64,000 nucleotides of DNA from an uncultured Thiotrichales bacterium (GTDB taxonomy: Bacteria; Pseudomonadota; Gammaproteobacteria; UWMA-0217), in assembly GCA_964430355.1 (NCBI GenBank), contig CAYSFW010000047.1:5090-69089 (forward strand). Reading direction: 5' to 3'. Below the pieces are notes generated by a model. That model searched no databases and was not told the origin of the DNA. It saw nothing but the letters and a program-made list of their open reading frames with translations. Within the stretch, counting starts at the first letter, position 1. Each line of letters opens with the position of its first letter. Made by a program: the position numbers and the translations under genes. Below are positions 6,939 to 57,377 of this stretch, piece after piece.

Positions 6939-7031
6939 GTGTCATCAACCATTTGGACTTTGTTTATTCTATGCGAACGGGCATCTGTTGCGCACAGTCC
7001 GGGGGCGCGGCCACAGTTAGTTGCAATCAGT

Positions 7032-7051: not shown

Positions 7052-7080
7052 TCTCTGTTATGCTTAGGAAAAATTTTTCG

Positions 7081-16069: not shown

Positions 16070-16599
16070 TTGTCTGACGCATCGTCGATGGCCCAACCGT
16101 TCAATGCTATCCGTTTCTCGCGCCGTTACTTGCGCTTTCTGCCGGAGGCCCGGCGGCTCGAACTGTTTCCGCCATTCTGGTGGATGGGCGTCAAGGTACT
16201 GGAGCTGTCGCCGGATTGGGGCAGGGTGAGGTTGCGTCTGCCACTGAACTGGCGGTCTCGCAATCTCGGCGGGGCGATGTTTGGGGGTTACCAGGCTTCG
16301 CTCGCGGACCCGATCGCTGCGCTGGCCTGCGCGCGGCGCTTCGCCGGGTATGACGTGTGGACGCGCAAGCTGACGCTGGATTTCCGTAGGCCCGGAACGG
16401 CCGACCTCGAGCTGCGCTTCGAGTTCCCGCCGACACTCGATGAGCGCATCGCGGAGGACTTACGCGAGCGGCACCGCAGCGATCCGCAGTTCGAGTACGG
16501 CTTCTATCTGCCGGACGGCACGCAGTGCACCGTAATTCACTGCACGGTAGCCATCCGCGAGCGAGGGTACGGCAGGCGGTTTGGTGTCGGCAGCGCGAG

Positions 16600-16603
<4 letters not shown>
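16070..16603 (+). CDS. hotdog-fold thioesterase-like protein (YiiD C-terminal/DUF4442-like)
   Basis: About 170 aa. Pattern and length fit the hotdog fold. The assignment is by recall only. Confidence 0.4.
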
Positions 16604-17817
<1,214 letters not shown>

Positions 17818-18143
17818 GACGCCTCAACCACTCCGTCTAAGGGAACGCTAATCAGCCCGTTGGATGGATGAGCGGCTGCGCCCGCCCATCGGCCTGCATG
17901 ATGTCCTGATAGGGAACGCCACGCCATGCGGGCTTGATCCCCGGCGTTCGCTCGGCAGGCCAACGGTGCGCCGTCCACATCCGCCCAGGTCGGATTCACG
18001 AACCCCACGCTCGCTAGATTCATCCGCGGCCTGTCGCGGCATGGCCGCACGATGACGGCGAGCGTCAGCAGCAGCCGGTCATGCGCGTTCATGTTCGTTG
18101 CCGGAACCCGAGGCATTCTTCATTCTTCGTTTGCGGCGCGTAA

Positions 18144-18659
18144 CTAGAAATCTGCCGTCGAGGTGAACAACCCGACTTTCAGGTCGGTGGCCGTGTAGAT
18201 TTCCCTGCCATCGACGGAAACCGAACCATCAGCGATGCCCATGACCAATTTGCGCTGAATGACACGCTTGAGGTCCAGCCGATAGGTCACCTTGTGCGCC
18301 GTTGGCAGAATCTGGCCAAAAAATTTCACTTCGCCCGCCCCGAGCGCGCGGCCTCGCCCCGGGTTGCCCAACCAGCCAAGGAAGAACCCCACGAGCTGCC
18401 ACAGCGCGTCGAGGCCAAGACAACCCGGCATGACAGGGTCCCCCCGGAAGTGGCACTCGAAAAACCAGAGGTCTGGATGGATGTCGAGCTCTGCTGTGAT
18501 CTCGCCCTTGCCATACTTGCCACCCGTGTCGGAAATCAGGGTGATGCGGTCCATCATCAGCATGTTGGGCAGCGGTAGCTGCGCATTGCCGGGGCCAAAC
18601 ATCTCGCCCATCGCGCACTGAATGAGTTCTTCTCGTGTAAAGGCGTTGGGTCGAGTCAT
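18144..18659 (-). CDS. fabA: 3-hydroxydecanoyl-ACP dehydratase/isomerase
   Basis: 171 aa with strong FabA identity (PNMLMMDRI..., [16 protein letters not shown]). Confidence 0.95.
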
Positions 18660-31967: not shown

Positions 31968-32342
31968 TTGCGCTATGTCAATGCGGTCGGGGCTGTGTTG
32001 CGGACACTATATCGCGCTCCCGTCACCCGTGTCTCATCCCTGAGCGTGCGTAGATCGAGCGGTTTTCTCCTTGCCGGCGGCGTGGCCCTGGCACTGATTG
32101 CAATGACCACCCTGGACGCGGCGCGGCAGCGGGCGGGCGCGCAGGCGCGGCTGGCCGAGGGGGCCAGGCTGGTGTCCGCGCTAGGGCTGACTGATCTCGC
32201 CCTGTTCACGGAGGCCCGCTACACGCGGCACTGGACTCAGGCGGATCTGCACAGCGCGTTTCAGGACCACCCCAGTGCACTCGAACATTTCCCGAGTGGC
32301 TCCCTGGTCGCGCCGTCGTGGGGGCGGGAGGCGGGGCTATGA
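31968..32342 (+). CDS. small membrane-anchored hypothetical protein, first gene of the NosL/ABC operon
   Basis: One TM segment (FLLAGGVALALIAMTTL). Its stop overlaps the permease start by 4 bp. Confidence 0.35.
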   Translation: MRYVNAVGAVLRTLYRAPVTRVSSLSVRRSSGFLLAGGVALALIAMTTLDAARQRAGAQARLAEGARLVSALGLTDLALFTEARYTRHWTQADLHSAFQDHPSALEHFPSGSLVAPSWGREAGL

Positions 32343-33472
32343 GCAGGGGATGGTGCCGACAGGCGTATCTCATCGATTTCACGCTCGCTTCGCTCTCGCG
32401 GCGACCCGGCAAGAACGCCGGGTTGGTCGTGGTCTACACGCTGATCGTGTTCCTGCTGGCGTCGGTGATGCTGTTTTCCCACGCGCTTCGGCGCGAGGCG
32501 GCACTGCTGCTGGCGGACTCGCCGCAGTTGATCGTGCAGCGCGTCGTGGCCGGCCGGCATGATTTCATCCCGGCGGAGTACCTGGAGCGCATCGGCGAAC
32601 TGCGCGGGGTTGCGTCGCGCCGGGGGCGACTGTGGGGCTATTTCTACGACCCGGCGGTGCGCGCCAACTACACGCTGATGGCAACCGAGGCGCACGGCCT
32701 CGTCCCGTCCGAGATCCTCATCGGCGCGACGATCGCTCGCACACGGGGGCTTGCCGCGGGGGATTTCCTCACGCTGCGCGACGCTGAGGGTCAACCCTTC
32801 GCGCTGCGCGTGCGCGGGGTGCTCGATGCGGACACTGAATTGCTCTCGGCTGATCTGGTCCTGCTCACGGAAGCGGACTGGCGGCGTTTTTTCGGCGTCG
32901 CGCAGGGTGTGTTCACGGATCTCGTGCTCGAGGTGCGCAACGCGGCGGAGGTGCGCAAGGTCGCGGAGAAAGTCACGCTGCTGCTGCCGGACACGCGGCC
33001 GATACTGCGCGAGGAGGTGCTGCGCACCTACGATGCGATCTTCGGCTGGCGGCAGGGCGTGGTGTTCGTGCTGCTGTTGGGGGCGGTGCTGGCCTTCGTG
33101 ATCTTCGCCTGGGACAAGGCCTCTGGCCTGTCCGCCGAGGAGCGGCGCGAAATCGGCATCCTCAAGGCGATCGGCTGGGAGACCTCGGACGTCATCCACA
33201 TGAAGTTCTGGGAGGGGGCGATCATCTCGCTCACGGCCTTCGCTCTCGGGTACCTCGGCGCGTACGTGCACGTGTTCTATGGTTCGGCGGCGCTGTTCGA
33301 GCCGGTACTCAAGGGTTGGGCGGTGCTCTACCCGGCGTTCCGACCGCTGCCCGAGATCGACGGCCTGCAGGTGGCAACGCTGTTCTTCTTCACTGTGTTT
33401 CCGTACACGGTGGCCACGATCGTGCCGATCTGGCAGGTGGCGGTCACCGATCCCGATGCCGTCATGCGATGA
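32339..33472 (+). CDS. ABC transporter permease, FtsX/MacB-type (4 TM with roughly 200-aa periplasmic domain)
   Basis: TM1, a long soluble domain, then three C-terminal TM helices with the FtsX signature region. It is translationally coupled to the ATPase. Confidence 0.75.
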   Translation: MSRGWCRQAYLIDFTLASLSRRPGKNAGLVVVYTLIVFLLASVMLFSHALRREAALLLADSPQLIVQRVVAGRHDFIPAEYLERIGELRGVASRRGRLWGYFYDPAVRANYTLMATEAHGLVPSEILIGATIARTRGLAAGDFLTLRDAEGQPFALRVRGVLDADTELLSADLVLLTEADWRRFFGVAQGVFTDLVLEVRNAAEVRKVAEKVTLLLPDTRPILREEVLRTYDAIFGWRQGVVFVLLLGAVLAFVIFAWDKASGLSAEERREIGILKAIGWETSDVIHMKFWEGAIISLTAFALGYLGAYVHVFYGSAALFEPVLKGWAVLYPAFRPLPEIDGLQVATLFFFTVFPYTVATIVPIWQVAVTDPDAVMR

Positions 33473-34143
33473 TCGAGCTCTCCGCCGTCAACAAGGTGTT
33501 CAACCAGGGGCGGCCCAATGAGTTTCGGGCCATCCGGGACGTGTCGCTGCGGCTCGACGGGGAGCGCGTGGTCGTGTTCAAGGGCCCGAGCGGCTCGGGC
33601 AAGACCACGCTGCTGTCGTTGATCGGCTGTCTGGCGCGACCGACTTCGGGACGCATCACGCTAGACGGCGAGCCCCTGTCCGGGCTGCCCGAGCGGTTCA
33701 TGACCGAGGTGCGCCGGCGCACCTTTGGCTTTGTGTTCCAGCAGTTCAACCTGATCCGGGGCCTGTCGGTGCTGGAGAACGTCATGCTGCCAGCCTATCC
33801 GCTGGGGCGTGATCATGGGGCGCTGAAGGCCGCGGCGCACGAGCGGCTGCGTCAGTTCGACCTCGACCACAAAGCCGCGGCGCGCGTCGAATGGCTATCC
33901 GGCGGTGAGGCGCAGCGTGTGGCGATCTGCCGCGCGCTGATCAACGAGCCGCGCATCCTGATCGCCGATGAGCCCACCGCCAACCTCGACAGCCGCTTGT
34001 CGCAGGCGTTCATGGATCACGTCGCCACGCTCGCCGCAGGCGGTGTCACCGTGCTGCTCAGCAGCCATGACCCCTTGGTGTTCGAATCCCCCGTGGTCGA
34101 GCGGGTCGTCGAGATGCGCGACGGGCAGGTGGTGTCCGCATGA
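33469..34143 (+). CDS. ABC transporter ATP-binding protein (LolD/MacB NBD-like)
   Basis: Walker A GPSGSGKTTLL, signature LSGGEAQRVAI and Walker B ILIADEPT. Confidence 0.9.
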   Translation: MIELSAVNKVFNQGRPNEFRAIRDVSLRLDGERVVVFKGPSGSGKTTLLSLIGCLARPTSGRITLDGEPLSGLPERFMTEVRRRTFGFVFQQFNLIRGLSVLENVMLPAYPLGRDHGALKAAAHERLRQFDLDHKAAARVEWLSGGEAQRVAICRALINEPRILIADEPTANLDSRLSQAFMDHVATLAAGGVTVLLSSHDPLVFESPVVERVVEMRDGQVVSA

Positions 34144-35144
34144 TCAGTCCGTCGGTGATGGCGCTGCAAGGCGCTTCGTTCACGCTGGCGGCATTGATGG
34201 TCGGCGCCGCGGCATTCGGTGTGCGCATCCTGCGGCATTGGGACATCACGAGTGGCAGCGAGCGGCAACTGCGGCTCGAACGTCAGACCTACCTGATCTC
34301 GACCGTCGTGGCCTACAGCTTCATGGCGGAGATCCTCGCGCTGCTCCTGTTCGTCTACACGGCCGAGCAGCTCTCGAGCCAGTTCGTCGGCGCGATGTGC
34401 GCCACCGGGGTCCTGAACGTCAATGGCTTCGGCTGGCCGACCTTGTGGGCAAAGATGGCCGTGGGATTCGCCGGTTTCGCGTGGCTCACCCTCGATGCGC
34501 TGGACCAGCGCGCGCCGGACTACCCACTCGTGAGGCGGAAGTACGCGCTGCTGATTGCGATCGCCCCGCTGGTCGTGCTGGAGGCCGGGTCGCAGGCAGC
34601 GTTCTTCGCCGGACTCAAGCCCGATGTCATCACCTCCTGCTGTGGCGCGTTGTTCACCCCGGAGGGACGAGGCGTGGCCGCGGAAGTCGCTGCAGTACCG
34701 CCCCGTTACGCAGCGATCCTATTCTATGCGAGCGGTGCCGCGCTCGCCGCGACGGGGGGTTACTTTCTGTGGCGGGCGAGGGGCGCGCGGCTGTTTGCGC
34801 TGGTGGGGGTGTCGACGTTCCTGATCGCGGTCGTGGCCATCGTCTCGTTCATCGCGCTGTACGTCTATGAGCACCCGCACCATCACTGCCCGTTCTGCTT
34901 GCTCAAGGCTGGCCACGGGTACGTGGGCTACGCGCTCTACCTGCCGCTGTTTACGGCCACGGCGTTTGCGCTAGGCACGGGGCTGGTCGCACCCTGGCGA
35001 CGCATCCCGACACTCGCCGAGGCGGCCCCGCGGCTGGCGCGGCACTACGCGTGGCTGGCATTAGCTGCCTTTACCGTGTTCTTCGCGGTGGCCACACTCG
35101 CCGTGCTGCGGTCGAACCTGACGATGGAGGGCGTTTGGTGGTAA
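34140..35144 (+). CDS. polytopic inner-membrane protein with conserved Cys/His motifs (AMCATG, TSCCG, HPHHHCPFCLLKAGHGY); family unknown
   Basis: About 8 predicted TM helices. Coupled by ATGA to the ATPase upstream and by TAATG to the thioredoxin gene downstream. Confidence 0.5.
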   Translation: MISPSVMALQGASFTLAALMVGAAAFGVRILRHWDITSGSERQLRLERQTYLISTVVAYSFMAEILALLLFVYTAEQLSSQFVGAMCATGVLNVNGFGWPTLWAKMAVGFAGFAWLTLDALDQRAPDYPLVRRKYALLIAIAPLVVLEAGSQAAFFAGLKPDVITSCCGALFTPEGRGVAAEVAAVPPRYAAILFYASGAALAATGGYFLWRARGARLFALVGVSTFLIAVVAIVSFIALYVYEHPHHHCPFCLLKAGHGYVGYALYLPLFTATAFALGTGLVAPWRRIPTLAEAAPRLARHYAWLALAAFTVFFAVATLAVLRSNLTMEGVWW

Positions 35145-35764
35145 TGCGGAGTCCACTGCGCGGCAAGGCGCGGGCAATGAAGGCATCACAGGGCGGTGAC
35201 TGCGCCGGTCGGTTTCGGGTGCCTGTGTTTCAAATTCTCGCGCACCAGGCGCTTGGCAGTCGATCGCCGTTGCGTGCTTGGAAGCTGACCTCAGCGCTGC
35301 TCCTCGTGGCGCTTGTCACCGCGTGCTCGGGCAAGCCCCCGGCGCTGGCCCCGGGCGAGCCGGTGCCCGGCTTCGCGTTGATGTCGCTCTCCGGCGAAAC
35401 CCTGCGTTTGCCGGAGGATGTGTCAGGCCGGGTGGTCGCCGTGCGCTTCTGGGCCGACTGGTGTCCGTTCTGCAAGTCGGAGATGCAGGCACTGGAGCCG
35501 GTTTACCAGCGCCTGAAGGAGGAGGGGCTCGTGATCCTGGCCATCAACGTCCGCCAGGACCGTGAGACCGCCGCGGCGTTCATCGCGAGGCTCGGTACGA
35601 GCTACCCGGTGTTGCTGGATACGGAGGGCGAAGTTGCGCGCCAGTATGGCGTCCTCGGCTTGCCGACGACCTTCATCGTGGACCAGCAGGGACGGCTGTC
35701 GTCGCGCATCATCGGCGAGTCCACGCCCGAGGTGTTCGAGCGCGCGGTGCGCGGGGCGCTGTGA
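35144..35764 (+). CDS. TlpA/ResA-family thiol-disulfide oxidoreductase lipoprotein (WCPFC)
   Basis: Thioredoxin fold with WADWCPFCKSEM. In frame, a TTG at 35270 would give the ideal lipoprotein signal MRAWKLTSALLLVALVTAC, so the true start may be 35270. Confidence 0.8.
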   Translation: MRSPLRGKARAMKASQGGDCAGRFRVPVFQILAHQALGSRSPLRAWKLTSALLLVALVTACSGKPPALAPGEPVPGFALMSLSGETLRLPEDVSGRVVAVRFWADWCPFCKSEMQALEPVYQRLKEEGLVILAINVRQDRETAAAFIARLGTSYPVLLDTEGEVARQYGVLGLPTTFIVDQQGRLSSRIIGESTPEVFERAVRGAL

Positions 35765-36441
35765 GCGACGAGTTCGGCTACGCGCTCGCGTTTCTCACTG
35801 GCCTGGCCGGGGCGCTGCACTGCCTGGGGATGTGCAGCGGGCTCGCGGCCGGGTTCGGCGCGCTCTGCGGTGTGCGGCCGTCCCTCGCGGTGCCGGCGCT
35901 CTATCACGCCGTGCGCCTCGGGGTCTACACGGTACTCGGCGCGGTCGGTGCGGCGCTCGGCAGCGCCCTGGTGCAGACCGGCCTGTTCGGCAAAGGGCAG
36001 GGGGTGTTGATGATCCTGGCCGGCATCGCCGTGATCTCGATTGGCGTTCATTTGGGGCTTGGGGGAGGGGCCGCGCAACCTGCCTGCAACGTGTCGGTCA
36101 AGCCCTTGCGCCGTCATGTCGGAGTTCCCCGTCACCGACTCGTCGCCTCCGCCCTCGGCGGCCTGATCAACGGCCTGGTGCCGTGCAGCCTGGTGTTTTC
36201 CGTCGCGCTCAAGGCCACGGCGACGGCAGATCCTGCGCGGGGTGCGCTGCTGATGGTGATCTTCGGGCTCGGCACGCTGCCGGCCATGTTTGCCGTCTCG
36301 GCGCTCGCCTCGCTGCTCGGCACACGGCTGCGGGGATGCTGGCCGCGCCGTCTGCTCGGGCTCACGGTCGTGATTCTCGGTGTGTGGACGCTGTACGAGG
36401 GCTGGGTGTTTTTTGACGTGATGCGCGGGCTGGCGGGCTAA
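35761..36441 (+). CDS. DsbD_2-type (CcdA-like) transmembrane thiol-disulfide transfer protein
   Basis: HCLGMC in TM1 and GLVPC in a later TM. Six TM helices. GTGA overlap with the thioredoxin stop. Confidence 0.6.
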   Translation: MSDEFGYALAFLTGLAGALHCLGMCSGLAAGFGALCGVRPSLAVPALYHAVRLGVYTVLGAVGAALGSALVQTGLFGKGQGVLMILAGIAVISIGVHLGLGGGAAQPACNVSVKPLRRHVGVPRHRLVASALGGLINGLVPCSLVFSVALKATATADPARGALLMVIFGLGTLPAMFAVSALASLLGTRLRGCWPRRLLGLTVVILGVWTLYEGWVFFDVMRGLAG

Positions 36442-36553
36442 TGGGGTGCGGCAATCTGTCGCATGTTTGTCTCGGGTCGCTGGGCGTATCCTAGTTCAAA
36501 GTCGCCTTGCGGCTTTCATAATCCAAGTTAAATCAAAGCCATGGAGACACCAC

Positions 36554-37180
36554 ATGAGCGATGTCGACACCCGCCGCCGTAAAGTCGTCAAGGTCCTCGC
36601 ATCCCTTGGCGCGGTCAGCGCAGTTGGTTTGCGGCCGGTTGCTGCCGCGCCGACAGCAGCGCGTTGCGACACCGACGGTACGCCGCTGCAGTTCGTCCCC
36701 AAGACGACTGCCGATGCCTCACCGCTCGAAAACGAGCTGCAAAAGTACCCGAAGTGCCCTTACTGCGGCATGGACCGCAAGCAGTGGAACCATAGCCGCC
36801 ACCTCGTGCAGTATGAGGACGATCTGGTCGACGGCACTTGCTCGATCCACTGTCTGGCGTTGAGCCTGGCGCTGAACATCGACCGCGGTCCGAAAGCGAT
36901 CTACGCAGCCGATTTCGGCTCGAGCGACGAGGTCAAGCCGCTGGTGCCGGTGGATGCCGCGACCTACCTGATCGGCTCGAAGCTCAAGGGTACGATGACG
37001 GCCGTGAGCAAGATGGCGTTCTCCTCTGCTGACGCAGCGAAAAAGTCGCAGGCCGAACACGGCGGTGAACTGGGCGACTTCGACAAGGCCCTGCGTGCCG
37101 CCTACACCAGCATGGCCGACGACACGTTGCGTATCCGCAAGATGCGTGCCGAGCGGCGCGCCAAAGCGATGCAGCAGTGA
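36554..37180 (+). CDS. NosL-family copper chaperone paralog with Tat-type signal
   Basis: TRRRKVVKVLASLGAVSAV twin-arginine signal. A CPYCGM metal motif, and the ATYLIGSKLKGTMTAV ... GGELGDFD segment aligns with the NosL core. GGAGA Shine-Dalgarno 6 nt upstream. Confidence 0.65.
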   Translation: MSDVDTRRRKVVKVLASLGAVSAVGLRPVAAAPTAARCDTDGTPLQFVPKTTADASPLENELQKYPKCPYCGMDRKQWNHSRHLVQYEDDLVDGTCSIHCLALSLALNIDRGPKAIYAADFGSSDEVKPLVPVDAATYLIGSKLKGTMTAVSKMAFSSADAAKKSQAEHGGELGDFDKALRAAYTSMADDTLRIRKMRAERRAKAMQQ

Positions 37181-37698
37181 TCGGCGCGGGTGTCTGGACG
37201 CGACGCCTGGGGCTTGCAGCGGTGTGGCTCTGTCTGGTTGCCGCGCCGTTGCGCTCTCACGCTGAGTCGCTGCAACTGCCCGCACCGGGGCCAAAGGACA
37301 CCTGCCCGGTGTGCGGCATGTTCGTATCCAAGTACCCGCAGTGGATCGCGACCGTGCTGTATCGAGACGGGCATGCGCACCACTTCGACGGGGCCAAGGA
37401 CCTGTTCAAGTATCTGCAGGACCTCGCAAAATGGGCCCCGGGCCGCCGCCGTGAGGACATTCAGGCGATCGGGGTCACCGAGTACTACGGCTTGAGTCGC
37501 ATCCGCGCCCAAGACGCCTGGTTTGTCATCGGTTCCGACGTGCTGGGGCCGATGGGGCACGAACTCGTGCCGCTCGCGTCCCAGGCCGAGGCCGAGGAGT
37601 TCGTGCGCGACCATCAAGGCAAGCGCATCCTGCGCTTCGACGCCGTGACCCCCGAACTCATCAAGCGTCTGGACGAAGGACGTTTCGACGGCATCTAG
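37177..37698 (+). CDS. nosL: NosL-family copper chaperone (Sec signal)
   Basis: CPVCGM motif, with AWFVIGSDVLGPMGHELV and RILRFDAV matching NosL. GTG start overlapping the upstream stop. Confidence 0.7.
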   Translation: MIGAGVWTRRLGLAAVWLCLVAAPLRSHAESLQLPAPGPKDTCPVCGMFVSKYPQWIATVLYRDGHAHHFDGAKDLFKYLQDLAKWAPGRRREDIQAIGVTEYYGLSRIRAQDAWFVIGSDVLGPMGHELVPLASQAEAEEFVRDHQGKRILRFDAVTPELIKRLDEGRFDGI

Positions 37699-37949
37699 CC
37701 GCGCCTGGCGCATCGCTCGGCGCCGGGTTTGCCCATGGGTTGAGCATCATCGTTGCCGGTCGGCTGGAGCTGCCCTACCATTCTGGGCCGCGCAGAGGTC
37801 GCAGCGCGGGTATCGCTGCGGTCTGCGGTTTCTCCAAGTAGGACCACTGCCGTGGTAGGTACACTATTCCAATACCGTTCGATCCTCGACCACGGGCGTC
37901 GCCGTGACGATGCCGGTCGTTGATTCAACCCATAGCCCAGGAGCCCTCG

Positions 37950-38336
37950 ATGTATACATTCGAAGTCACGCTCAGCATGCCGTTTGACGACGCCGTCGCC
38001 CGCGTCACGGCGGCACTCATGGAACACAAGATGGGTGTTGTGAGCGACATACCGGTGTCGGACATCGTGAAGAACAAACTCGGTACCGCGATCCGCCCCT
38101 ACCGCATCCTCGGCGCCTGTCAGCCTGCGCTCGCCCTGAGGGTGATCGAATCGGACCCCAACGGCGGCACGCTCCTGCCTTGTAACGTCGCGCTGCAGGA
38201 GGTGGCCGATGATCAGGTCGTCGTGCGTTTCATGGACCCCATCTCCGTGCTGCGTCTCTCCGACGCCGCAGAGGTCGCCGACGTCGGCCGTGAGGCCGCT
38301 GCCCTGTTGCGGCGGGTTGCCGACAGCCTCGCCTGA
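37950..38336 (+). CDS. DUF302 domain protein
   Basis: The YRILGACQP motif and a length of about 128 aa are typical of DUF302. Confidence 0.75.
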   Translation: MYTFEVTLSMPFDDAVARVTAALMEHKMGVVSDIPVSDIVKNKLGTAIRPYRILGACQPALALRVIESDPNGGTLLPCNVALQEVADDQVVVRFMDPISVLRLSDAAEVADVGREAAALLRRVADSLA

Positions 38337-38627: not shown

Positions 38628-39116
38628 TCAGGCCGACTGGGATGCCTCGCTGGCGATCGCGCCGTGCAGCCGGCGCTCTAGCTCACCGTGGTCCAGGATG
38701 AAGCATTTGACGCCCGCCGCGAGCACGTACTGGGCGATCAGGTCGCAAGACTTATACGGCGCCTGAGGTCGGATGTCTGACTCACCTAGGCGCACGGGGT
38801 GCGGTATGCCCTGAATCTCTATCGCGAAGCTGTCCAGGCCGCGCAGGTTGAGCAGGCCGTTGAGCACGGCAACGCGCCGGGTGCGTACCTGGGTCTGCTC
38901 TGGCAGCAGATCACAGAAACGCTCCAGTGACACCAGTGGTACCTCGCGATCGCGCCACACCAGCAGCCCCCGAATCCAGTCCGGTACGCTTTGCAGGGGG
39001 CGCACTTCCGGCATCGACACGACCTCGACCAAAGCGCTCTGCGGCACCAGTAGATTTTGCAGCCGCATCGGAACGATCAGCGATTGAATCTTTACTTTAG
39101 CGTGCTGCGTTTCCAT
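38628..39116 (-). CDS. chpC: CheW-like coupling protein (ChpC-like)
   Basis: Single CheW domain. Its start overlaps the chpA stop by 20 bp. Confidence 0.8.
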   Translation of the reverse strand: METQHAKVKIQSLIVPMRLQNLLVPQSALVEVVSMPEVRPLQSVPDWIRGLLVWRDREVPLVSLERFCDLLPEQTQVRTRRVAVLNGLLNLRGLDSFAIEIQGIPHPVRLGESDIRPQAPYKSCDLIAQYVLAAGVKCFILDHGELERRLHGAIASEASQSA

Positions 39117-42100
39117 GTGCCTGCTGTCCGACTTCCTTGAAAACGGCCTGGATGTTTTCGATCAACACCTGATCCTGGTACGGCTTGCCGAGGAACCGAT
39201 TCACACCGAGCTCGAGCGCCCGATCACGGTGCTTTTTGCCCGTGCGCGAGGTAATCATGATGATCGGCAACTCACGGTTGGTGTCCATGCTGCGAATGTG
39301 CGCAGCAAGCTCGTAGCCGTCCATGCGCGGCATCTCGATATCGAGCAGCATCATATCGGGCCGCACTTCCTGCAACTGCGCGATGGCGTCCATGCCGTCC
39401 TTTGCGGTGATCACGTTGAAATTGTGCCGCTCGAGCATGCGTGCCGTGACCTTGCGGATGGTGATCGAGTCGTCGACCACCATGATCGTTGGGCGTTCTG
39501 TCCCAACCGAGGATTCCTTGCGCACCGGTGCCGGCGCCCAGGACGCCTCGCCAGCGACTGAACGCAGCAGGCCCAGCATGTCGAGGATGAGCACAACGCG
39601 CCCATCGCCGAGGATGGTCGCGCCGGAGATCCCCTTGACCGACTGGAACAGGGCGCCGATTGACTTCACGACAATCTCGCGGTTGCCGATCAATTGATCG
39701 ACGACGAATCCCACCGCCCTGTCGTGAGTGCGTGCGAGCAGCACGGGCATGGTGCGTTCGAAGTGAGGCACCGGGTGATGCGCGTCGCGCTCCAGCACCG
39801 CTGAAAGCAGCTTGAGCTGGTAGCTGGCGCCTGCATACTCGATGCCGGGATCGCGGTGCGCGAATTTGTCATTCAGGACCTTGGCCGGGATCTGCACCAC
39901 GCTGTCGATGGCGGTCAGGGGTACCGCGAAGAGCTCGGTGCCGACTGTGATCAGCAGGGCCTGGTTGATCGCGAGCGTGAACGGCAAGTGGATCCGGAAG
40001 CGGGTGCCCTGACCGGGTGTCGACTGGATATCGAGCACACCGTTAAGGCGCCGCACCTGCTCCTGAACCACGTCCATACCGACGCCGCGACCCGAGAGCT
40101 GGCTCACGCGTTCCGCTGTGCTAAAGCCAGGTTGGAGGATCAGTTCCATGACCTCGGCGTCGGTCAACTCACGCGAACCGTCGATCAGGCAGACCGCCAT
40201 CGCCTTGCGCCGGACGGCATCGAGGTTGATTCCAGCACCGTCATCCGAGACCGCGATGACGACCTCCGGGCCTTCGCGCGCAATCCTCACCTGGATGCGG
40301 CCGATGCGTGGCTTGCCCGCCTGCGTCCGGTGTTCCGGCAGCTCGATGCCGTGCGCGACCGCATTGCGCAGCATGTGCTCGAGCGGCACCATGATGCCCT
40401 CCAGCATCTTGCGGTCGAGCGGCTGCTGTTCGCCGCTGACGTGGAGCTCCACCTCCTTGCCCAGCTCCAAGGCAGCGCGTCGGACCACCCGCCGCAGCCG
40501 CGGGACCATGACCCTGAACTCCGACATGCGGGTCTGCAGGAGGCTCTCCTGAAGATCTCCGCTGACGCGGCTCTGCTGGCGAAGCAGGGATTCGAGCGCG
40601 CGAATCTGTTCCGAGAGGATCTGGTGGAGATTGACCAGGTCGTTGGAACTCTCCGCCAGACCGCGGGCGAGCTGTTGCATGGTCGAATAGCGGTCCAGCT
40701 CCAGCGGATCGAACTTGTCGTAGACCGAGCTTTCGTCCGGGTCGATCTTTGCATCGTAGCGATGCACGATCTGTGCTTCGGTCTCCACCTCGAGACGGCG
40801 CAACTGGGCCCCAAGCCGCTTGATGGTCTGGTCGAGTTCCTGCAGGTTGAACGCGAAACCGCCGACCTGCTGCTCCAGCCGCGACTGAAATACGTTCACT
40901 TCGCCGACGTTGTCGACCATCTTGTCGAGCAAGTCGGCGCGAATCTTGACGACATCCCGGGCCGCTGCGACCTCCGCAGCGACCGCTTCGCCCGGCGCGG
41001 TATCCGCTTCGTGCTCGGTTTCGGGGGATGGGGTTGTGGCCGGTTCGGTCGGTGCAGCAACCGTCATCGTCCTTACCGGATCGGCTGCTGCCACAGGGCT
41101 TTCCACCTGCGCCATGATGCCGGCGAGCGTCTTTGCGGAGATATTTTCGCCCCGTCGCACGCGGGCCAACTGTTCCATGAGCGGCTGGTTGTTGGCCACG
41201 GGCTTGTGGGCCTGGATGAGCGCGGCCATCTGGTTGATCTGGTCGAGACCGGTGTGGATCAGGTCGAACAGCTCGCGGTCAGGATTGAGTTGGCCCTCCA
41301 CGACGTCGAGGAGGACATTCTCCAGTGCGTGGCTGAGGTCCCCAAGCACCTGAATCCCCGCCATCCGGGCGCCGCCTTTGAGGGTGTGCAACTCACGGCG
41401 CAGTTCGGCCAGCGGCCCAGCATCACTCGGGTTCGACTGCCAGCGCGCCATGATGTTGTCGCAGCTGTCGAGGATCTCACGGCATTCCTCGAGGAACACC
41501 TCGACAAGCTCGGCCGATTGCTCACCCGCGCCGTCCTCCTGCCAGGTCTTGGCGGGCTCGCTCGACCCGCCTCGCGGCGTGAGCCCGGAGGACATAGCTT
41601 CGTCCGCGGCGGGTGACGCCTGCGGTGCATCGTTTGACCCAGGGGCGTCGATGGTGGCCGCCAGCGCGTCGTTTGCGACCTCGGGTGATTGAGCTGAGTC
41701 CTGTGCCTCCAGTTCGACCGCCGCCACGGGCACGTCCAGGCTGGGGCTCTGTGCGAGAGCCTCGGCGGCTTCGTGGGCACGCCACTGCAAGGTGGGGTCC
41801 TGGGGAACCGGTGTTGACGCCTGAAGCGCGGCGATCACGTGCTCCACGTAACCCGCAAAGTCCAGCAGCAACGTCACCTCGTCTGCGTCCAGCACCAGCG
41901 CGTGCCGGTATTTCAGCGTCAACAGGCGCTCGAGATCCTTCGCGGTCTCGTAGATCTCCGGCAACGCGGCGGTTCGGGCCGCGCCGTTGAGCGTGTGCGC
42001 AGCACGCAGCAGCGGTTCATCGACGAGCGCTGGCCCCATCTCGCAGCGGGCACACGCCTTGCGGATTTGCGAGATGTGCTCGAGCGCCTCAGCGGCAAAG

Positions 42101-45090
42101 ATATCCAGCAAAGCCGTATCATGCGGCTTCGCGGTCTCCTCGATCACGCCCGCCACATCTTGGGCGGAGGCGAGGATGACCGCCTCATCGCCTGCGAGCA
42201 CGGCCTCGGACTCGGTCGATTCGGGTGCCACGACACTGTCGCTCGGCTGATCCACCGTAGTTGCCGACGCCTGGACGGCATGCGCATCGGGCTCGTCCGC
42301 CGGCTTGGTAGGTTCGCTGCGGGCGGCCTCCTCGCTGGGGACAGCGGTCTCGCCGGACAGCGGACTCGGGACGATGGCGGGTAGCACCGTAGCAGATCCA
42401 GCGAGCTCCTCGTCGCGCGCGCGTTCCAAAGTCTCGGAGACGGCGGCGTCGGCCGGTTCGGTCAACGTCTCCGGAGGCTCCGCAGGATGGTCGAGCGTGC
42501 CGGCCGATTCGGCGTTCGGATTTTCGACCGTGTCGATGCGCGCCAGGTGTGAAATGACGGCGGCGTTCGGGCGCTCGCGGGCGAGCAACTGGTCACGCAG
42601 CACGGGGAGCAGGGCAATACCCGACTGCACGTACGCGATCAGGGCTGGAGTGACGGGGATCGAGCCGTCCATCGCCCCGTTCAACAGGTGCTCGTGATTC
42701 CAGGCGAACTCCCCGATGACCTGGGCGCCGATCAGGCGCGAGCTTCCCTTGATCGTGTGGAATGCGCGGCGGATCTGGGTCAGTGCCTCACGTTCGGCTG
42801 GGTTGTCCGCCCACGTGCCGATGGCCGCGTTCAACCGCTGGATTTCCTCGCCCAGTTCCTCGGCAAAAATGTCCAGGAACTCGGGGTCGGCATCGCTGGT
42901 CAGCACCTCCAGTCCCGCGAAGGGATCGGTTTGCGCCGGGAGGTCTGCTGGCTGCGCTTCGCCGCCCCCCCTCATTGACAGTGCCGGGCTGCCCGCTGGA
43001 ACCCCCTCAGGGGCCATCTGCGGTTCGGGAACGACGGCTGCCTCCGCGTCGACCGTCGGCTTTGCGTTCGTCTCGTCGAATGCGAGCGCGCGCATCAGGG
43101 AGGTATCCCACAGATCGCCCTCGAACTGGTCGTCAGCCGCAATCTGCTCATGGTCGAGGCCGCTGGCGCTGGCATCCAGCCCGATCAGGGTCGCGTTGAT
43201 ACCGAGATCGGTCAGCGGTTCGTCGAACTCCTCGGTCAGGTCAATGATCTCCGTGCCCGACAGGAGGTCCTCGTCTGCCCGCAGTGCGTCGTCGAGCGCA
43301 GGCTCGAGCAGCATCGCCTCTTCAATCGCCGCCGCGTCCTCCGCAACGGACGTCTGCTCGACGAGCTCGTCGAGCTGCCGCTCAAGGGCGTGCAGGGCAA
43401 GTCGTCCTGAATCAAGATAAGGCGGATGCGGTTCGCCACTGACCTCGATCGATTCGAGGTACAGCTCGATGCTCGCCACCACGTCGGCCATGCGTTCCAC
43501 GGCAGAGGTGGCTGGCAAACGTTCGTGGGTTGCGATGCGCTGCATGGCGGGGGCAAAGTCGCGCACCAGTGAGGCACACTGGTCGAGTTCGAGTACCTGC
43601 AACGCGCCCTGCATGCGCTGGAGCGACCCTTCGATGGGTGCGAGCGCGAGCCGGTCGCTCGCCTCAGACTTGACGTAGGTGGCGATCGCAGTCTTGCACT
43701 GCTCGAGTTCGGTGAGCGTCTCGCGAATGGCGACGGCGCGTGTCTTGGCGTATTCGATGTCGCGGAGCTTGTCCTGACCGGCGGCATCGCTGTCACTATC
43801 CTCGAGCGTGACCAGCATGTCGCGCGCGCCCACGCCGTAAGAGGCCATGCTGGCCTCGACTTCGAGCAGCGTCTTGGCGAGGGCTTCGGACTGCGCTTCG
43901 TCGGGAATTTGCCGATCGTCCAGCGTGCGCTCCAGCTCTTCGAAGCGCGCGTGCACCGCCTCGCGCAGCTCAGACAGGCCCAACATGCCAAGCGTCTCGG
44001 CCAGTCGGCGCAGCGACGGTAAGACCGGGATGAGCAGGTCGATGGTCTTACGCTCGGCCAGCCCGAAGATTTCGAGCTGGTCCTTGAGGTCCTGGACGTC
44101 CTCGCAAACCGCCTTGGCCACGGAGCGGAACAGGGCGTTGTTTTGTCCGCTCACGCTGATGCGAGCGGCAGAGAGCGCTTCGGGACTTGGCAGGTCGCCA
44201 TCCAGAAAATAGGCCTCGCGCACGGCATCGACGACCGGATTGCCAGGTTCGGCAATGGCCACGTAGTACAGAAGGCTTCGCACCAGCTCGATGGGAATCA
44301 GCGGCGCGAAGCGCTGTTCGCCCATCTCGAACAAGAGCTTGATTTGACGGTCGATCTTGCCGAGCACGAGCTTGATGGCCGCGGAAGGCGCGAGCACCCT
44401 CGAGTGCAGCGCCTCGAGTATCGCCTCGGATACCCACCACAGGCGCTTGCTTGCGCGGAAGTGCGAGGCGTGCCGCAGGCGCTGACACACCAAGGCCATC
44501 TTTTTGAGGTTCGACTGGACGTTCTTGTTGCGGTACCAGCCGAGCAGGCCGAGCTGGAATACATGCCGCGTGAGGTGTGCGAGGCCCTGCAGGTCCTCGT
44601 GAGTCAGTGGACGGGTTTCCGCTACGTCCGATCCCTGGTCCAGATTCGAGATTTTCACGATGTTGTCGGAGATCAGCTCCTCGTCGCGTGCTGCGCGTAG
44701 GTCATTGAGGATGGACACGAGCACAAGCGGGATGTCCTCACGTCCGGACTGAATGTATTCGAGGTAATCCGGCAACTGGATGAGCGCACGCACCACGAGC
44801 TTGCAGGCTTCGACAGGCCGCCGCACGCGATTGTCGGCGACTTGCCGGATCAGGGCGAGGCACTCCTGAGCGAGCATGGCCGCGCCGCTGAGCTCGGCAA
44901 CTTCCAACGTGCCGAGCACGTCCTTGATTTGCGGCAGTGCACGGTGGAGGTGCTGTACCTGCGCAGTGTCGTCGAGGTAATTCAACACGGCCGCGCGCGC
45001 TGCCTCGAGGGAGCGGTCGATCTCCCGCTTGACCCACGTGAGCGAATTGAAGCGATGCCTGATTTGCGAGTCCATGGATTCCTCTAACAC
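39097..45090 (-). CDS. chpA: hybrid chemosensory histidine kinase ChpA/PilL (multiple Hpt domains, CheA kinase core, CheW domain, C-terminal receiver)
   Basis: 1997 aa. It has at least three Hpt motifs (HTIKGSSRLIGA, HTLNGAARTAAL, HTLKGGARMAGI), the HATPase G-boxes, a CheW domain, and a REC domain MVVDDS...LLDIEMPRMDG at the C-terminus. Long acidic Ala/Pro/Glu linkers are present. Confidence 0.9.
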   Translation of the reverse strand: MLEESMDSQIRHRFNSLTWVKREIDRSLEAARAAVLNYLDDTAQVQHLHRALPQIKDVLGTLEVAELSGAAMLAQECLALIRQVADNRVRRPVEACKLVVRALIQLPDYLEYIQSGREDIPLVLVSILNDLRAARDEELISDNIVKISNLDQGSDVAETRPLTHEDLQGLAHLTRHVFQLGLLGWYRNKNVQSNLKKMALVCQRLRHASHFRASKRLWWVSEAILEALHSRVLAPSAAIKLVLGKIDRQIKLLFEMGEQRFAPLIPIELVRSLLYYVAIAEPGNPVVDAVREAYFLDGDLPSPEALSAARISVSGQNNALFRSVAKAVCEDVQDLKDQLEIFGLAERKTIDLLIPVLPSLRRLAETLGMLGLSELREAVHARFEELERTLDDRQIPDEAQSEALAKTLLEVEASMASYGVGARDMLVTLEDSDSDAAGQDKLRDIEYAKTRAVAIRETLTELEQCKTAIATYVKSEASDRLALAPIEGSLQRMQGALQVLELDQCASLVRDFAPAMQRIATHERLPATSAVERMADVVASIELYLESIEVSGEPHPPYLDSGRLALHALERQLDELVEQTSVAEDAAAIEEAMLLEPALDDALRADEDLLSGTEIIDLTEEFDEPLTDLGINATLIGLDASASGLDHEQIAADDQFEGDLWDTSLMRALAFDETNAKPTVDAEAAVVPEPQMAPEGVPAGSPALSMRGGGEAQPADLPAQTDPFAGLEVLTSDADPEFLDIFAEELGEEIQRLNAAIGTWADNPAEREALTQIRRAFHTIKGSSRLIGAQVIGEFAWNHEHLLNGAMDGSIPVTPALIAYVQSGIALLPVLRDQLLARERPNAAVISHLARIDTVENPNAESAGTLDHPAEPPETLTEPADAAVSETLERARDEELAGSATVLPAIVPSPLSGETAVPSEEAARSEPTKPADEPDAHAVQASATTVDQPSDSVVAPESTESEAVLAGDEAVILASAQDVAGVIEETAKPHDTALLDIFAAEALEHISQIRKACARCEMGPALVDEPLLRAAHTLNGAARTAALPEIYETAKDLERLLTLKYRHALVLDADEVTLLLDFAGYVEHVIAALQASTPVPQDPTLQWRAHEAAEALAQSPSLDVPVAAVELEAQDSAQSPEVANDALAATIDAPGSNDAPQASPAADEAMSSGLTPRGGSSEPAKTWQEDGAGEQSAELVEVFLEECREILDSCDNIMARWQSNPSDAGPLAELRRELHTLKGGARMAGIQVLGDLSHALENVLLDVVEGQLNPDRELFDLIHTGLDQINQMAALIQAHKPVANNQPLMEQLARVRRGENISAKTLAGIMAQVESPVAAADPVRTMTVAAPTEPATTPSPETEHEADTAPGEAVAAEVAAARDVVKIRADLLDKMVDNVGEVNVFQSRLEQQVGGFAFNLQELDQTIKRLGAQLRRLEVETEAQIVHRYDAKIDPDESSVYDKFDPLELDRYSTMQQLARGLAESSNDLVNLHQILSEQIRALESLLRQQSRVSGDLQESLLQTRMSEFRVMVPRLRRVVRRAALELGKEVELHVSGEQQPLDRKMLEGIMVPLEHMLRNAVAHGIELPEHRTQAGKPRIGRIQVRIAREGPEVVIAVSDDGAGINLDAVRRKAMAVCLIDGSRELTDAEVMELILQPGFSTAERVSQLSGRGVGMDVVQEQVRRLNGVLDIQSTPGQGTRFRIHLPFTLAINQALLITVGTELFAVPLTAIDSVVQIPAKVLNDKFAHRDPGIEYAGASYQLKLLSAVLERDAHHPVPHFERTMPVLLARTHDRAVGFVVDQLIGNREIVVKSIGALFQSVKGISGATILGDGRVVLILDMLGLLRSVAGEASWAPAPVRKESSVGTERPTIMVVDDSITIRKVTARMLERHNFNVITAKDGMDAIAQLQEVRPDMMLLDIEMPRMDGYELAAHIRSMDTNRELPIIMITSRTGKKHRDRALELGVNRFLGKPYQDQVLIENIQAVFKEVGQQAHGNAAR

Positions 45091-45124
45091 TAAGCCTGCC
45101 TGACATCCCTGTCCGGACCGCCGG

Positions 45125-47242
45125 TCACACTCCGACCGCTACGCCACCGGCCTGGTTCGCGACAGATTCGCGCGCTGCGTTCATGTCGTCGGCGAGCGCA
45201 GGGGTGTCGGGCAGCTTGAAGCCCTCCACCGACTTTCTGAGATCGGACGCCTGATTGACGAGCTCCGCCAGGGCGACTGCGGTCTCGTTGGTCGCGTTCA
45301 CGGTCTGCTTCGTGATTTCCTGGATCGAACCCATCGCCTCGGCGACAACACCGGAGACGATCGCCTGCTCGCGCGCCTCCTCGGAGATGTTGCGGATCAG
45401 ATCGGCCAGTTTGTGCGATACCTTTTCGATTTCGCTGAGCGCCTTGCCGGCGTCTTCGGCCTGATGGGCGCCGGTGACGACGTTGGCCGTACTCTTTTCC
45501 ATGGAACTGATGGCCTCATGCGTATCCGCCTGAATAGTCTTGACCAGCACCTCGATTTGCTTACTCGAGTTGGCGGCCCGCTCCGCCAGTCGTTGCACCT
45601 CGTCGGCGACGACAGCGAATCCCCGTCCGCCTTCACCGGCGGAGGAGGCCTGGATGGCGGCGTTGAGTGCGAGGATGTTCGTCTGGTCAGCGATGTCGGT
45701 GATCATGCCGACGATCTCGCCAATCTGCTGCGAGCTCTCACCCAGGCGCTTGATGCGCTTGGAAGTGTCCTGAATGTGCTCACGGATCTTGTCCATGCCC
45801 TCGATGGTGCGGTGCACGGTGTCCACGCCGCGTTGCGAGATGACCAGCGACTGCTCGGCAACCTTCGCTGAGAGTTCGGCGCTATTGGAAACCCGCTCGA
45901 TCGAGTGCGTGAGGTCATTGATCGAGTCGGTGGCTGAGGCGATCTTGCGCGCCTGTTTCTTACTCGCCTCAGCGAGCTGGATGGAGGTTCGCCGCGTGCG
46001 CTCGGCGCGCTCGGAGACCCGGTTGGCTGATTCGTTGATGGTCGTGACCAGCGTGCGCAGCGCGTCCACGGCGTAGTTCACGGAGTCGGCAATCGCGCCC
46101 GTGATGTCCTCGGTCACCGTCGCGTTCACGGTCAGGTCGCCATCAGCGAGTGTGGCCATTTCATCGAGCAACTTGAGGATGGCTGCCTGGTTGCGGTCGT
46201 TGGACGCCTTGGACTGCTGCAGCTGCGTGCGTGTGGCGCGCAGCACCCCATGTGCCATGGCCAGGAAGCTCAACAGGGCGAGCAGCGCAAGGATGAGGCC
46301 GGCGTTCGACCAGAGCGCCGCGCTGCGGTTGTGTTCCTGGATGGCGGCTTCAAGCCGGGTGGTACCGTCGAACAGCGCGCGCCCCTCGCCTTCGACCGAC
46401 ACGGCAGCCTGACGGACGCTGTAGAGCTGCGGGGCGATCTCCACCAAATTGCTGGCCCGGTCGGCGACGTCCCCGAAATCGGACACGATCGCGGCGAGGG
46501 CACCCTGCGCGGCGGGCGTTGCGACCCGGTCCACGCCGAGCGCGGGATTGCCGCTGCGCATGGCGTCCACGACCTGGCTGAAGACGGAGACGTCCTTGTT
46601 GAGCTGGTCGGCCGCGTTGATCGCGGAGGCGTCCCCCACCAGGAGGCTGGTCAGGTTGTTCTCGATACGCTGCGCGAGCATGAGCTGGCGCGTGGCCATG
46701 TAGATCTGGTTGGTGCCAGCGCGGGCATCGCGCAGGATCTCGACGATTCTTGCGGAGGCATCCAGCAACGCGGGGAGTTTGGACTTGACGACGTCCACCG
46801 CCTGCTTGGTGCGAGTGATGACGCCGCGGCTGGCGAGGATGGCGTTGAGCTGCCGGTCTAAGCGCTCCCACTGGCCTACGATCTGGTCGAGTTCGGGTTT
46901 GAGCTCGGGGGACAGGGCAGGTACGCCCGCCTCGGCATCGCCGATGCACAGGCGGTTGAGGTTTTGCTGAAACTCCTCACGCAGCTGCTTTAGCAGCAGG
47001 AAGGCGGTGTCGCCGCCCTGCGAGGCAGCCAGTGATTGCGTGGTCAAGCGTTGCGAGAGCAGGCGCAGGGCGGCGGCAGCCTCACCGTGGCTGCGGCCCG
47101 TGTTACCCAGTTTTGCCGCCTGATAGAAGGACACGCCCATCAGCACGATGAACAGGAGGACCAGGCTTCCCCACAGGCCAACCGGCCGGCTGATGCTGGC
47201 TGCCTGCCGGGATTTGGAGGGTTTCAAACCGAGCGCTTTCAT
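45125..47242 (-). CDS. pilJ: methyl-accepting chemotaxis protein PilJ
   Basis: N-terminal TM helix, periplasmic domain, second TM helix, HAMP, and the highly conserved MCP signalling domain. Confidence 0.9.
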
Positions 47243-55989: not shown

Positions 55990-56032
55990 GCCGGTCTTCT
56001 TATTGTTCCTTTGGTTGCGCCGCGTCGGGCTC

Positions 56033-57199: not shown

Positions 57200-57377
57200 C
57201 TTGCCGTGTTCCCGTGGTTGAGGTCGTTGCCAGGTGCGCACCGTCGGCGCGGTGCGCCCTCGACGCCATGGCGTGCGCTGCCGAATCGTATCGCGTGAGC
57301 ACTGGCCCCGATGGCCTCGTTACTGTGGAGTGCCTCACTCGCACCGCATCGTAACGGCTCATGGGATGCGCAACGGT

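Follow-up and report, generated by a model that had tools for sequence, protein, structure and literature searches.

A 64-kb stretch of contig CAYSFW010000047.1 from an uncultured Thiotrichales bacterium, hereafter the window, carries on its plus strand, between positions 31968 and 37698, a compact module of eight genes that ends in two paralogs of the copper chaperone NosL. The genes encode a small membrane-anchored protein (gene 1, here called sm), an FtsX-type permease and an ATP-binding cassette (ABC) ATPase (genes 2 and 3), a Cys/His membrane protein of an undescribed family (gene 4, here called G4), a TlpA-like thioredoxin and a DsbD_2 membrane protein (genes 5 and 6), and the paralogs NosLa and NosLb (genes 7 and 8). 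The core of this module, NosL-sm-FtsX-ABC-G4, is widely conserved in sulfur-oxidizing Gammaproteobacteria, Desulfobulbales, and uncultured lineages, and is a self-contained unit. Judged from its sequence, the module would be a chaperone-plus-ABC system for metallocenter assembly that contains two families without annotation, G4 and sm. We give an even chance to a reading in which it relays Cu(I) in the periplasm at the expense of ATP, has a branch that reduces thiols, and assists nitrous oxide (N2O) reductase and possibly other copper enzymes; the metal handled would be Cu(I), or possibly another thiophilic metal.

Conservation of the module was assessed in two sets of loci. A scan for G4 using one genome per species yielded 80 window-like, closer loci, and a metagenome scan started from a 7-sequence alignment yielded 80 more, which are more diverse; completeness was counted only where both flanks extended for 3 kb or more, which left 64 loci (46 window-like and 18 distant). 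In the gene-neighborhood search that the original prediction had proposed, the core was complete throughout: genes for sm, FtsX, ABC, and NosL stand beside the G4 gene in 64 of 64 loci, and those for TlpA and DsbD_2 are present in 51 and 34 of them, respectively. Carriers within the first set include Sedimenticola, Ca. Thiodiazotropha, tubeworm endosymbionts, Thiohalomonas, Lamprocystis, and many uncultured Gammaproteobacteria, to which protein searches add Thioalbus, Sulfurivermis, and Endothiovibrio. Maps built by tblastn show sm-FtsX-ABC-G4 together with the NosLa-NosLb pair, which in Sedimenticola lies upstream of sm and not at the 3' end. A distant G4 clade in the Desulfobulbales has the order Redoxin-NosL-sm-FtsX-ABC-G4 and a divergent helix-turn-helix regulator; the NosL directly upstream of sm in distant clades is of the NosLb type (38-45% identity), and a NosLb ortholog is found immediately upstream of sm in Sedimenticola, the Desulfobulbales, and clusters embedded among nos genes.

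Both NosL assignments are supported by profile and structure comparisons. NosLb matches the Pfam NosL family (PF05573) at 3e-30 with 105.7 bits, and NosLa at 1e-12 with 48.9-49.4 bits, against a cutoff of 24. Searched against the Protein Data Bank (PDB), NosLb retrieved the NosL structures 7og7 (1.2e-8) and 7osf (4.5e-6). An AlphaFold2 model of NosLa (predicted local distance difference test score of 80.3) was compared using Foldseek; its five best matches, which were the only significant ones, were all NosL (7og7 at 8.6e-7; probability 1.00). In S. denitrificans NosL, Cu(I) is bound by Cys62, Met64, and Met145, and a structural Zn is bound by Cys59, Cys62, Cys88, and Asp92 (PMC8457098). NosLb presents CPVCGM, FDGAKD, and GPMG (within GPMGHE) at the positions aligned to this crystallized protein, with C59, C62, M64, and M145 conserved. 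NosLa presents CPYCGM, C-S-I-H-C, and KGTM, corresponding to the Cu ligands and a Cys4 site, and its homologs share an invariant RR, CPYC.M, C..HC, and M. Both paralogs thus retain the Cu(I) ligands of the solved NosL, and the second metal site would by sequence be Cys2Asp2 in NosLb and Cys4 in NosLa. NosLb, predicted to be Sec-exported and soluble, has an ordinary signal peptide that ends in SHA before the residues ES, with no lipobox; NosLa, likewise devoid of a lipobox, starts with a twin-arginine leader, as would suit a protein that folds around a metal before it is exported.

The Cys/His membrane protein G4 is labelled 'hypothetical' in public records; no Pfam or NCBIfam model matched it even at E = 10, and no relative was found among solved structures. 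A profile search of 1.84 billion representatives returned 1,101 clusters at E <= 1e-3, so that the family numbers no fewer than 1,100 clusters when grouped at 50% identity; the best-scoring 150 clusters listed are nearly all single-domain proteins of about 330 residues, or shorter fragments. Conservation was computed over 108 sequences, down to 27% identity, and identifies as nearly invariant W34, Q43, E47, G84-A-M-C87, G90, W115, D122, K134, S166-C167-C168, F172, Y243, P246, H248, and C250-P-F. The motifs are G-A-M-C87, in which M86 adjoins C87, S-C167-C168, and P246-x-H248-H249-C250-P-F-(C/D)253, with position 253 occupied by Cys in 70 of the 108 sequences and by Asp in 30. Following the positive-inside rule, the N terminus and all motif-bearing loops would be periplasmic, because loops 1, 3, 5, and 7 hold 15 Lys and Arg residues versus 4 in the other loops. 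The periplasmic cluster of four Cys, His, and Met, with its Cys/Asp alternation, looks like a soft-metal site, and the Cys/Asp swap at position 253 would fit a metal ligand better than a disulfide.

By sequence, the ABC transporter of the module is placed within the type VII superfamily, without being an equivalog of MacB, LolCDE, or FtsEX. The permease matches Pfam FtsX with 27.7 bits (cutoff 25.5) and has transmembrane (TM) segments at residues 28-46, 240-258, 295-313, and 346-364; the ~190-residue periplasmic domain between TM1 and TM2 reproduces the MacB/LolC layout. An FtsX domain, four TM helices, and a large TM1-TM2 periplasmic domain are the traits by which a type VII ABC is recognized, and the claim that the permease is of the MacB-like mechanotransmission kind, not the ABC-2 NosY kind, was upheld by the Pfam match and the four-TM layout. 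The lolCE model TIGR02212 aligned residues 124-377 with model positions 143-409 of 411, at 27.5 bits versus a cutoff of 362. The MacB periplasmic core domain (PF12704) had no match in the window permease at E = 10, weak precomputed MacB_PCD matches are found in the FtsX orthologs of three other loci (L088, L091, and L092), and the FtsX protein sequence retrieved only YtrF, at E 0.14, from the PDB. The ATPase matches Pfam ABC_tran at 6.9e-31; its best NCBIfam matches are FtsE, LolD, DevA, and MacB, all below their equivalog cutoffs (FtsE 175.5 versus 265; LolD 170.3 versus 308; MacB 154.5 versus 966). Always directly upstream of the FtsX gene, distant clades included, is the gene for sm, a protein with a single hydrophobic segment (residues 31-49 of the long open reading frame [ORF]) and no match in Pfam or NCBIfam even at E = 10. 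Its conservation is limited to the C-terminal ~50 residues, which form the tail LGLTDL..TEARYTRH..FQDHP..EHFPSGS.

The remaining two proteins would furnish the thiol branch. Gene 5 matches Pfam AhpC-TSA (1.1e-26) and Redoxin (1.3e-23) and encodes a lipobox, VTAC, and the active site WCPFC; the lipobox Cys and WCPFC are conserved. Its NCBIfam scores stand at 102.9 versus a cutoff of 170 for ResA, 80 versus 123 for DsbE, and 52.3 versus 230 for TlpA; the predicted protein combines the traits of a periplasmic thioredoxin, that is, the fold, a CxxC, and a lipid anchor, without an equivalog-level match to any of the three. Gene 6 matches Pfam DsbD_2 (PF13386) at 1.9e-34, with 119.8 bits versus a cutoff of 24.9; its HCxGMC and (V)PC motifs are conserved, and it is a putative electron-transfer protein. 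In the set of 80 closer loci, every DsbD_2 gene is accompanied by one for TlpA.

The core is embedded in nos gene clusters repeatedly. Loci L114 and L122 possess nosZ, two cytochromes c, a membrane protein, nosD-F-Y, a NosLb-type gene, sm, FtsX, ABC, G4, two NosL genes (one lipidated), and nosG-nosH, and their gene order is the clade II nos layout. The nos-embedded cluster of L113 includes a Sco/SenC-like protein with an FCPDICP (CPDIC) motif. L097 reads nosZ-D-F-L-Y-Tlp-NosL-NosL-sm-FtsX-ABC-G4, and L090 comprises nosD-F-L-Y, a redoxin (Tlp), three NosL-domain genes, sm-FtsX-ABC-G4, and an FGE-sulfatase-family gene. A neighbor-joining tree built from 156 G4 sequences distributes the nos-linked loci over three separate clades; in one clade, all loci with enough flank to judge are nos-linked. 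Linkage to nos was found in 6 of the 18 complete distant loci, but only 1 of the 46 window-like ones has nos genes within 8 kb. The original prediction had stated that nosZ, nosD, nosF (ABC-2), and nosY are lacking from the window. For the window this stands, as the only matches of nos queries in tblastn were those of NosF ATPase queries to gene 3; the nos link nevertheless proved closer than had been assumed. In L001, the closest relative of the window (66-82% protein identity), a convergent nosH-nosF-nosY-nosD run lies directly downstream and starts about 600 nucleotides (nt) after NosLb.

Several further features were observed around related loci. In L113, 14474-15193 (minus strand) and 16441-18568 (plus strand) hold the Sco/SenC-like gene and a duplicated nosG-nosH pair that follows a 100-aa fragment of a second G4 gene, arrangements that we read as evidence of a past tandem duplication; the second G4 hit of this locus was considered as a paralogous family and rejected, being only a gene fragment beside the duplicated pair. 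In L090, NosL domains are fused at 5016-5741 and 6330-7685, one to a C-terminal cytochrome c and the other to a Phenol_MetA_deg outer-membrane channel. The cytochrome c-fused NosL is of the NosLa type, and the channel fusion hints at metal passage across the outer membrane. An FGE-sulfatase-family gene directly follows G4 in L088-L090, L094, and L095 (e.g., L090 11086-12075); members of this family are copper-dependent or associated with nirK. An ORF family of P1B-type ATPases occurs in four loci and is situated upstream of the module in L002-L004, in which the 823-aa ORF (E1-E2_ATPase, Hydrolase, and HMA by a Pfam run on L004, 2552-5023) precedes a second DsbD_2. This second DsbD_2 paralog is found in L002-L004 and L045 (e.g., L004 5086-5706), and the features lie about 2.5-6 kb upstream of the module. 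We count the ATPase, the extra DsbD_2, and the NosL fusions of L090 as further links of the module to copper. In L084 and L085, of one distant lineage, the six-gene core and a Rieske/cytochrome b/cytochrome c complex adjoin divergently (1718-5598, minus strand); in Wolinella, clade II N2O respiration depends on complexes of the Rieske/cytochrome bc kind.

Taken together, a working model for the module can be drawn. In the type VII ABC, cytoplasmic ATP hydrolysis would move the periplasmic domain of the permease, together with sm, and no substrate would be carried across the membrane. This movement would drive Cu(I) transfer between NosLb and the G4 site and onward to clients, in parallel to NosFY, which drives NosD between NosL and NosZ. 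DsbD_2 would hand cytoplasmic reducing power to TlpA, and TlpA would keep the Cys ligands of NosL, G4, or the clients reduced, making metal binding possible, much as TlpA prepares ScoI and CoxB. NosLa may serve as a second chaperone that is loaded or folded in the cytoplasm. In nos-linked loci, the client would probably be the clade II N2O reductase; in the Desulfobulbales, and perhaps in the window genome too, the module would have to serve other copper enzymes, periplasmic or in the membrane, or copper handling in general. Metal could flow in the direction of uptake, insertion, or removal. The original prediction of periplasmic Cu(I)/thiol-redox trafficking by a MacB-type ABC draws support, as far as sequence goes, from the NosL Cu ligands, the predicted periplasmic placement of the G4 motifs, and the nos-embedded core. 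A bolder version, which we consider possible and yet rather unlikely, would make NosL-sm-FtsX-ABC-G4 an unrecognized ATP-driven line of Cu acquisition and insertion for N2O reductase and other periplasmic copper enzymes, specialized for sulfidic habitats in which Cu is locked as Cu-sulfide. In this version, G4 would represent a new type of Cu(I)-binding membrane protein driven by a type VII ABC; alternatively, it could be the sulfur donor long sought for CuZ.

A number of observations weigh against the proposed Cu(I) relay for N2O reductase. The FtsX Pfam score of the permease is barely over its cutoff, neither NosL paralog is lipidated, unlike canonical NosL, which is a lipoprotein (PMC8457098), and it is gene order alone that suggests the parts act together. 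NosZ, NosR, NosD, NosY, and NosX queries found nothing in the 64-kb window by tblastn, and only one of the 46 window-like loci has nos genes nearby. The Desulfobulbales loci possess the six-gene core alone, with no nos genes detected in their 10-kb flanks; N2O reductase thus cannot be the sole client. These solitary modules also speak for detoxification, in which NosL and G4 would capture Cu(I), Ag, Cd, Zn, or Hg and a MacB-type ABC would expel the metal from the periplasm or outer leaflet, and the module would protect its carriers in metal- and sulfide-rich habitats instead of supplying an enzyme. MacB-type ABCs are typically exporters or extractors, the carriers inhabit sulfidic, metal-rich settings, and L002-L004 have, upstream, a heavy-metal ATPase of the P1B type that includes an HMA domain. 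We hold detoxification to be unlikely, however: none of the loci encodes a membrane-fusion or outer-membrane partner, no conserved metal-sensing regulator of the MerR/CueR/ArsR type is nearby, and the repeated embedding beside nosDFY, nosGH, and Sco points to supply, not removal. The CxxC and the vicinal Cys pair of G4 could equally perform thiol-disulfide chemistry, and we know of no established sulfur donor for the CuZ [4Cu:2S] center. A somewhat less probable alternative again would cast G4 as a DsbB/VKOR-like thiol oxidoreductase or persulfide carrier that, with TlpA and DsbD_2, reduces or oxidizes periplasmic Cys or delivers sulfide, for example for CuZ. The CPFC of G4 is the same CxxC as that of the TlpA-like protein, it would share the periplasmic side with the vicinal Cys167-Cys168 and with Cys87, TlpA and DsbD_2 recur in 51 and 34 of the 64 loci, the module is linked to nos clusters, and the analogous FetABCDEF system has been proposed to relay reducing power (PMC10783030). 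Yet a conserved disulfide at the G4 CxxC is ruled out because its second Cys is Asp in 30 of the 108 members, and the conserved His248/249 and Met86 beside Cys resemble metal ligands; 13 of the 64 complete loci lack TlpA and all have NosL, and a sulfide donor seems unnecessary for carriers in sulfide-rich habitats.

Two other readings seem to us improbable. The module might be a variant FetABCDEF that supports uptake of iron or another non-copper metal, with NosL-fold proteins replacing the YHS/DUF2318 of FetA; the two are built in parallel, each combining periplasmic thioredoxins and an FtsX-type ABC with a Cys-rich membrane protein of 8 TM helices. Neither FetM/Ftr1 nor P19 genes were found in the window region or in individually annotated loci, however, a search of G4 for DUF2318 and YHS gave nothing even at E = 10, one FtsX gene stands in place of the two in Fet, and the neighbors are nos, Sco, and P1B-ATPase genes, not iron genes, all of which make this very doubtful. 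Least probable of all would be a Lol-like sorting system, in which a LolC/LolD-like pair extracts from the inner membrane a dedicated lipoprotein, which could be a lipidated NosL or the TlpA-like protein. While the best NCBIfam matches of genes 2 and 3 include LolCE and LolD, gene 5 has a lipobox, and canonical NosL is lipidated, the scores are far under the equivalog cutoffs (27.5 versus 362 and 170 versus 308), NosLa and NosLb lack a lipobox, loci without TlpA still retain the ABC genes, and G4 and sm are left unexplained.

In the window, the module comprises eight consecutive plus-strand ORFs (Table 1). The tight coupling reported in the original prediction was confirmed at each junction that it listed: ATGA overlaps at 32339, 33469, and 34140, a TAATG junction at 35144, and GTGA junctions at 35761 and 37177 all read from the sequence as described. 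The eight genes and their motifs, AMCATG, TSCCG, HPHHHCPFC, WCPFC, HCLGMC...GLVPC, CPYCGM, and CPVCGM, are likewise all present and conserved in homologs, and every family assignment held in the profile hidden Markov model checks, with FtsX, ABC_tran, AhpC-TSA/Redoxin, DsbD_2, and NosL (twice) supported by Pfam. Gene 1 probably starts at GTG 32046 and not at the ORF-opening TTG 31968, because conservation among homologs begins near residue 27. For gene 7, the start is assigned to ATG 36554 because the conserved twin-arginine leader begins there, in agreement with the public gene call; with this start, the gap between genes 6 and 7 is 112 nt and contains the sole promoter-like match on the plus strand.

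Table 1 Genes of the module in the window, with the open reading frames (alternative starts separated by a slash) and the assigned coding positions.
Gene	Open reading frame	Coding positions	Strand	Product
gene 1 (sm)	31968-32342	32046..32342	+	Small protein anchored by a single N-terminal membrane helix; conserved, predicted periplasmic tail
gene 2	32318/32339-33472	32339..33472	+	FtsX-family permease of MacB/LolC (type VII ABC) architecture
gene 3	33469-34143	33469..34143	+	ABC ATPase of the FtsE/LolD/DevA/MacB group
gene 4 (G4)	34140-35144	34140..35144	+	334-aa 8-TM membrane protein of an undescribed family
gene 5	35144-35764	35144..35764	+	TlpA/ResA-like thioredoxin-fold lipoprotein
gene 6	35761-36441	35761..36441	+	DsbD_2 (CcdA-like) membrane protein
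gene 7 (NosLa)	36446/36554-37180	36554..37180	+	NosL-fold protein; twin-arginine leader; additional helix at the C terminus
gene 8 (NosLb)	37177-37698	37177..37698	+	NosL-type Cu(I) chaperone (predicted) with a cleavable signal peptide

The original prediction described the module as inserted at the lpxA-lpxB junction, of which one side is borne out. The run does come after lpxA, which ends at 31920, matches NF003657 with 356 bits (a full-score equivalog), and is preceded on its 5' side by rseP, bamA, skp, lpxD, and fabZ. In E. coli, the counterpart block continues directly into lpxB-rnhB. In the window, lpxB does not come next; the module is followed instead by a DUF302 gene and by a chemosensory cluster in convergent orientation, and E. 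coli LpxB and RnhB used as tblastn queries had no match anywhere in the 64 kb. An insertion between lpxA and lpxB is thus only half observable, and the position is common to no other locus. Within 8 kb, all 80 related loci are devoid of lpxA, lpxB, and rnhB, and no conserved flanking genes were found in the window-like clade, in which the best recurring neighbor, a sigma-54 activator, appears in only 8 loci; the position after lpxA is therefore peculiar to the window genome. Lipopolysaccharide-core genes (Kdo kinase and the Kdo transferase WaaA; 2214-4547, plus strand) lie upstream of the module in L001, at the place where the window has lpxA; that lipid A/core genes, different ones, are upstream in both may be a coincidence. 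The GC content at third codon positions (GC3) of the eight module genes is 0.79-0.88 versus 0.79-0.86 for neighboring genes, within or near the range of the latter, in keeping with the native GC and codon usage noted originally. A recent island or insertion was ruled out: no tRNA gene, flanking repeats, or mobility genes were found around the module, and GC3 is within the neighbors' range.

The DUF302 gene (37920-38336, plus strand) lies directly downstream of NosLb and is found on the matching public contig as well; it was considered as a part of the module and is probably not one, since it is absent from all 80 related loci. The convergent chemosensory cluster, at 38628-47242 and 54745-58412 on the minus strand, occupies the place expected for lpxB-rnhB and comprises a CheW-like ORF, a 1,997-aa ChpA-like hybrid kinase, a 705-aa ORF, and, further along, two T2SSE (PilT/PilU-like) ATPases. 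A second periplasmic-type thioredoxin of the window, positionally unrelated to the operon, is a 499-aa ORF at 12010-13509 (minus strand), in which residues 342-456 form an AhpC-TSA/Redoxin thioredoxin-like domain and the N-terminal ~340 residues have no Pfam match.

Interest in the module stems from the question of how N2O reductase is supplied with copper where sulfide prevails. To our knowledge, N2O reductase is the only biological N2O sink, and its activity depends on twelve Cu(I) per dimer reaching the periplasmic enzyme. A 2025 preprint calls explicitly for work on the molecular mechanism of Cu acquisition for N2O reductase in sulfidic water and sediment. The module pairs NosL chaperones with an ABC motor of another kind and with a previously undescribed Cys/His membrane protein, inside clade II nos clusters of uncultured bacteria, and is common in sulfur-oxidizing symbionts, free-living Gammaproteobacteria, and Desulfobulbales. 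Were a role in copper supply true, it would constitute a second assembly line beside NosDFYL, assign a function to two unannotated families (G4 and sm), and widen the range of tasks of mechanotransmission ABCs. Cultured carriers, among them Sedimenticola selenatireducens, Thioalbus denitrificans, Sulfurivermis fontis, and Desulfosediminicola flagellatus, make the idea directly testable.

The original prediction matched this gene combination to no named system, and literature searches agree, having found in the library searched no matching system or paper and no description of a nos- or NosL-associated FtsX-type ABC. Four known systems share parts of its design. The C. jejuni fetMP-fetABCDEF genes, of which fetABCDEF is needed under iron limitation and proposed to relay reducing power, encode an FtsX-type ABC, thioredoxins associated with the membrane, and a Cys-rich 8-TM protein to which a small metal-binding domain belongs (PMC10783030). 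The module differs in that G4 is devoid of DUF2318/YHS (no match to E = 10), a single permease gene replaces two, and NosL-fold proteins stand in place of P19/FetM, neither family being seen among annotated neighbors; its links are to copper and nos genes, those of Fet to iron genes. With the type VII ABCs MacB, LolCDE, and FtsEX the module shares the four-TM FtsX domain, the TM1-TM2 periplasmic domain, and an FtsE/LolD/MacB-like ATPase, but scores are far below cutoffs, no MacA/TolC, LolA/B, or EnvC-type partner is encoded near the module, and its ABC is always coupled to G4, sm, and NosL. The thiol branch recalls CcdA-ResA/TlpA and TlpA-ScoI/CoxB, as a CcdA-like protein adjoins a TlpA/ResA-like CxxC lipoprotein, with a start/stop overlap and in a copper-chaperone context; DsbD_2 (PF13386), however, is a family in its own right, sister to CcdA/DsbD_TM, which has an HCxxMC motif and could itself bind metal, and the thioredoxin of the module is below the ResA, DsbE, and TlpA cutoffs.

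The last comparison is with NosDFY-NosL (P. stutzeri, PDB 7osf-7osj and 7znq; S. denitrificans NosL, 7og7), in which a NosL chaperone and an ABC also work in the periplasm. The Cys/Met/Met Cu ligands are kept in both paralogs of the module, and the module is found beside nosDFY in several lineages. Set against this, the window does not read as a nosDFY(L) operon, given the null tblastn searches for NosZ, NosR, NosD, NosY, and NosX and the FtsX-type permease; the module has neither the NosD β-helix nor an ABC-2 NosY, its permease being FtsX/MacB-type, and it adds G4 and sm. Its NosL proteins in the window are not lipidated, one being predicted to be exported by the twin-arginine route, and a thiol-reducing branch is attached. 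Moreover, in nos-embedded loci the module is added to nosDFY and does not replace it. On this comparison, the module would work most like NosDFYL, in coupling a chaperone with an ABC mechanotransducer, without being a member of that family.

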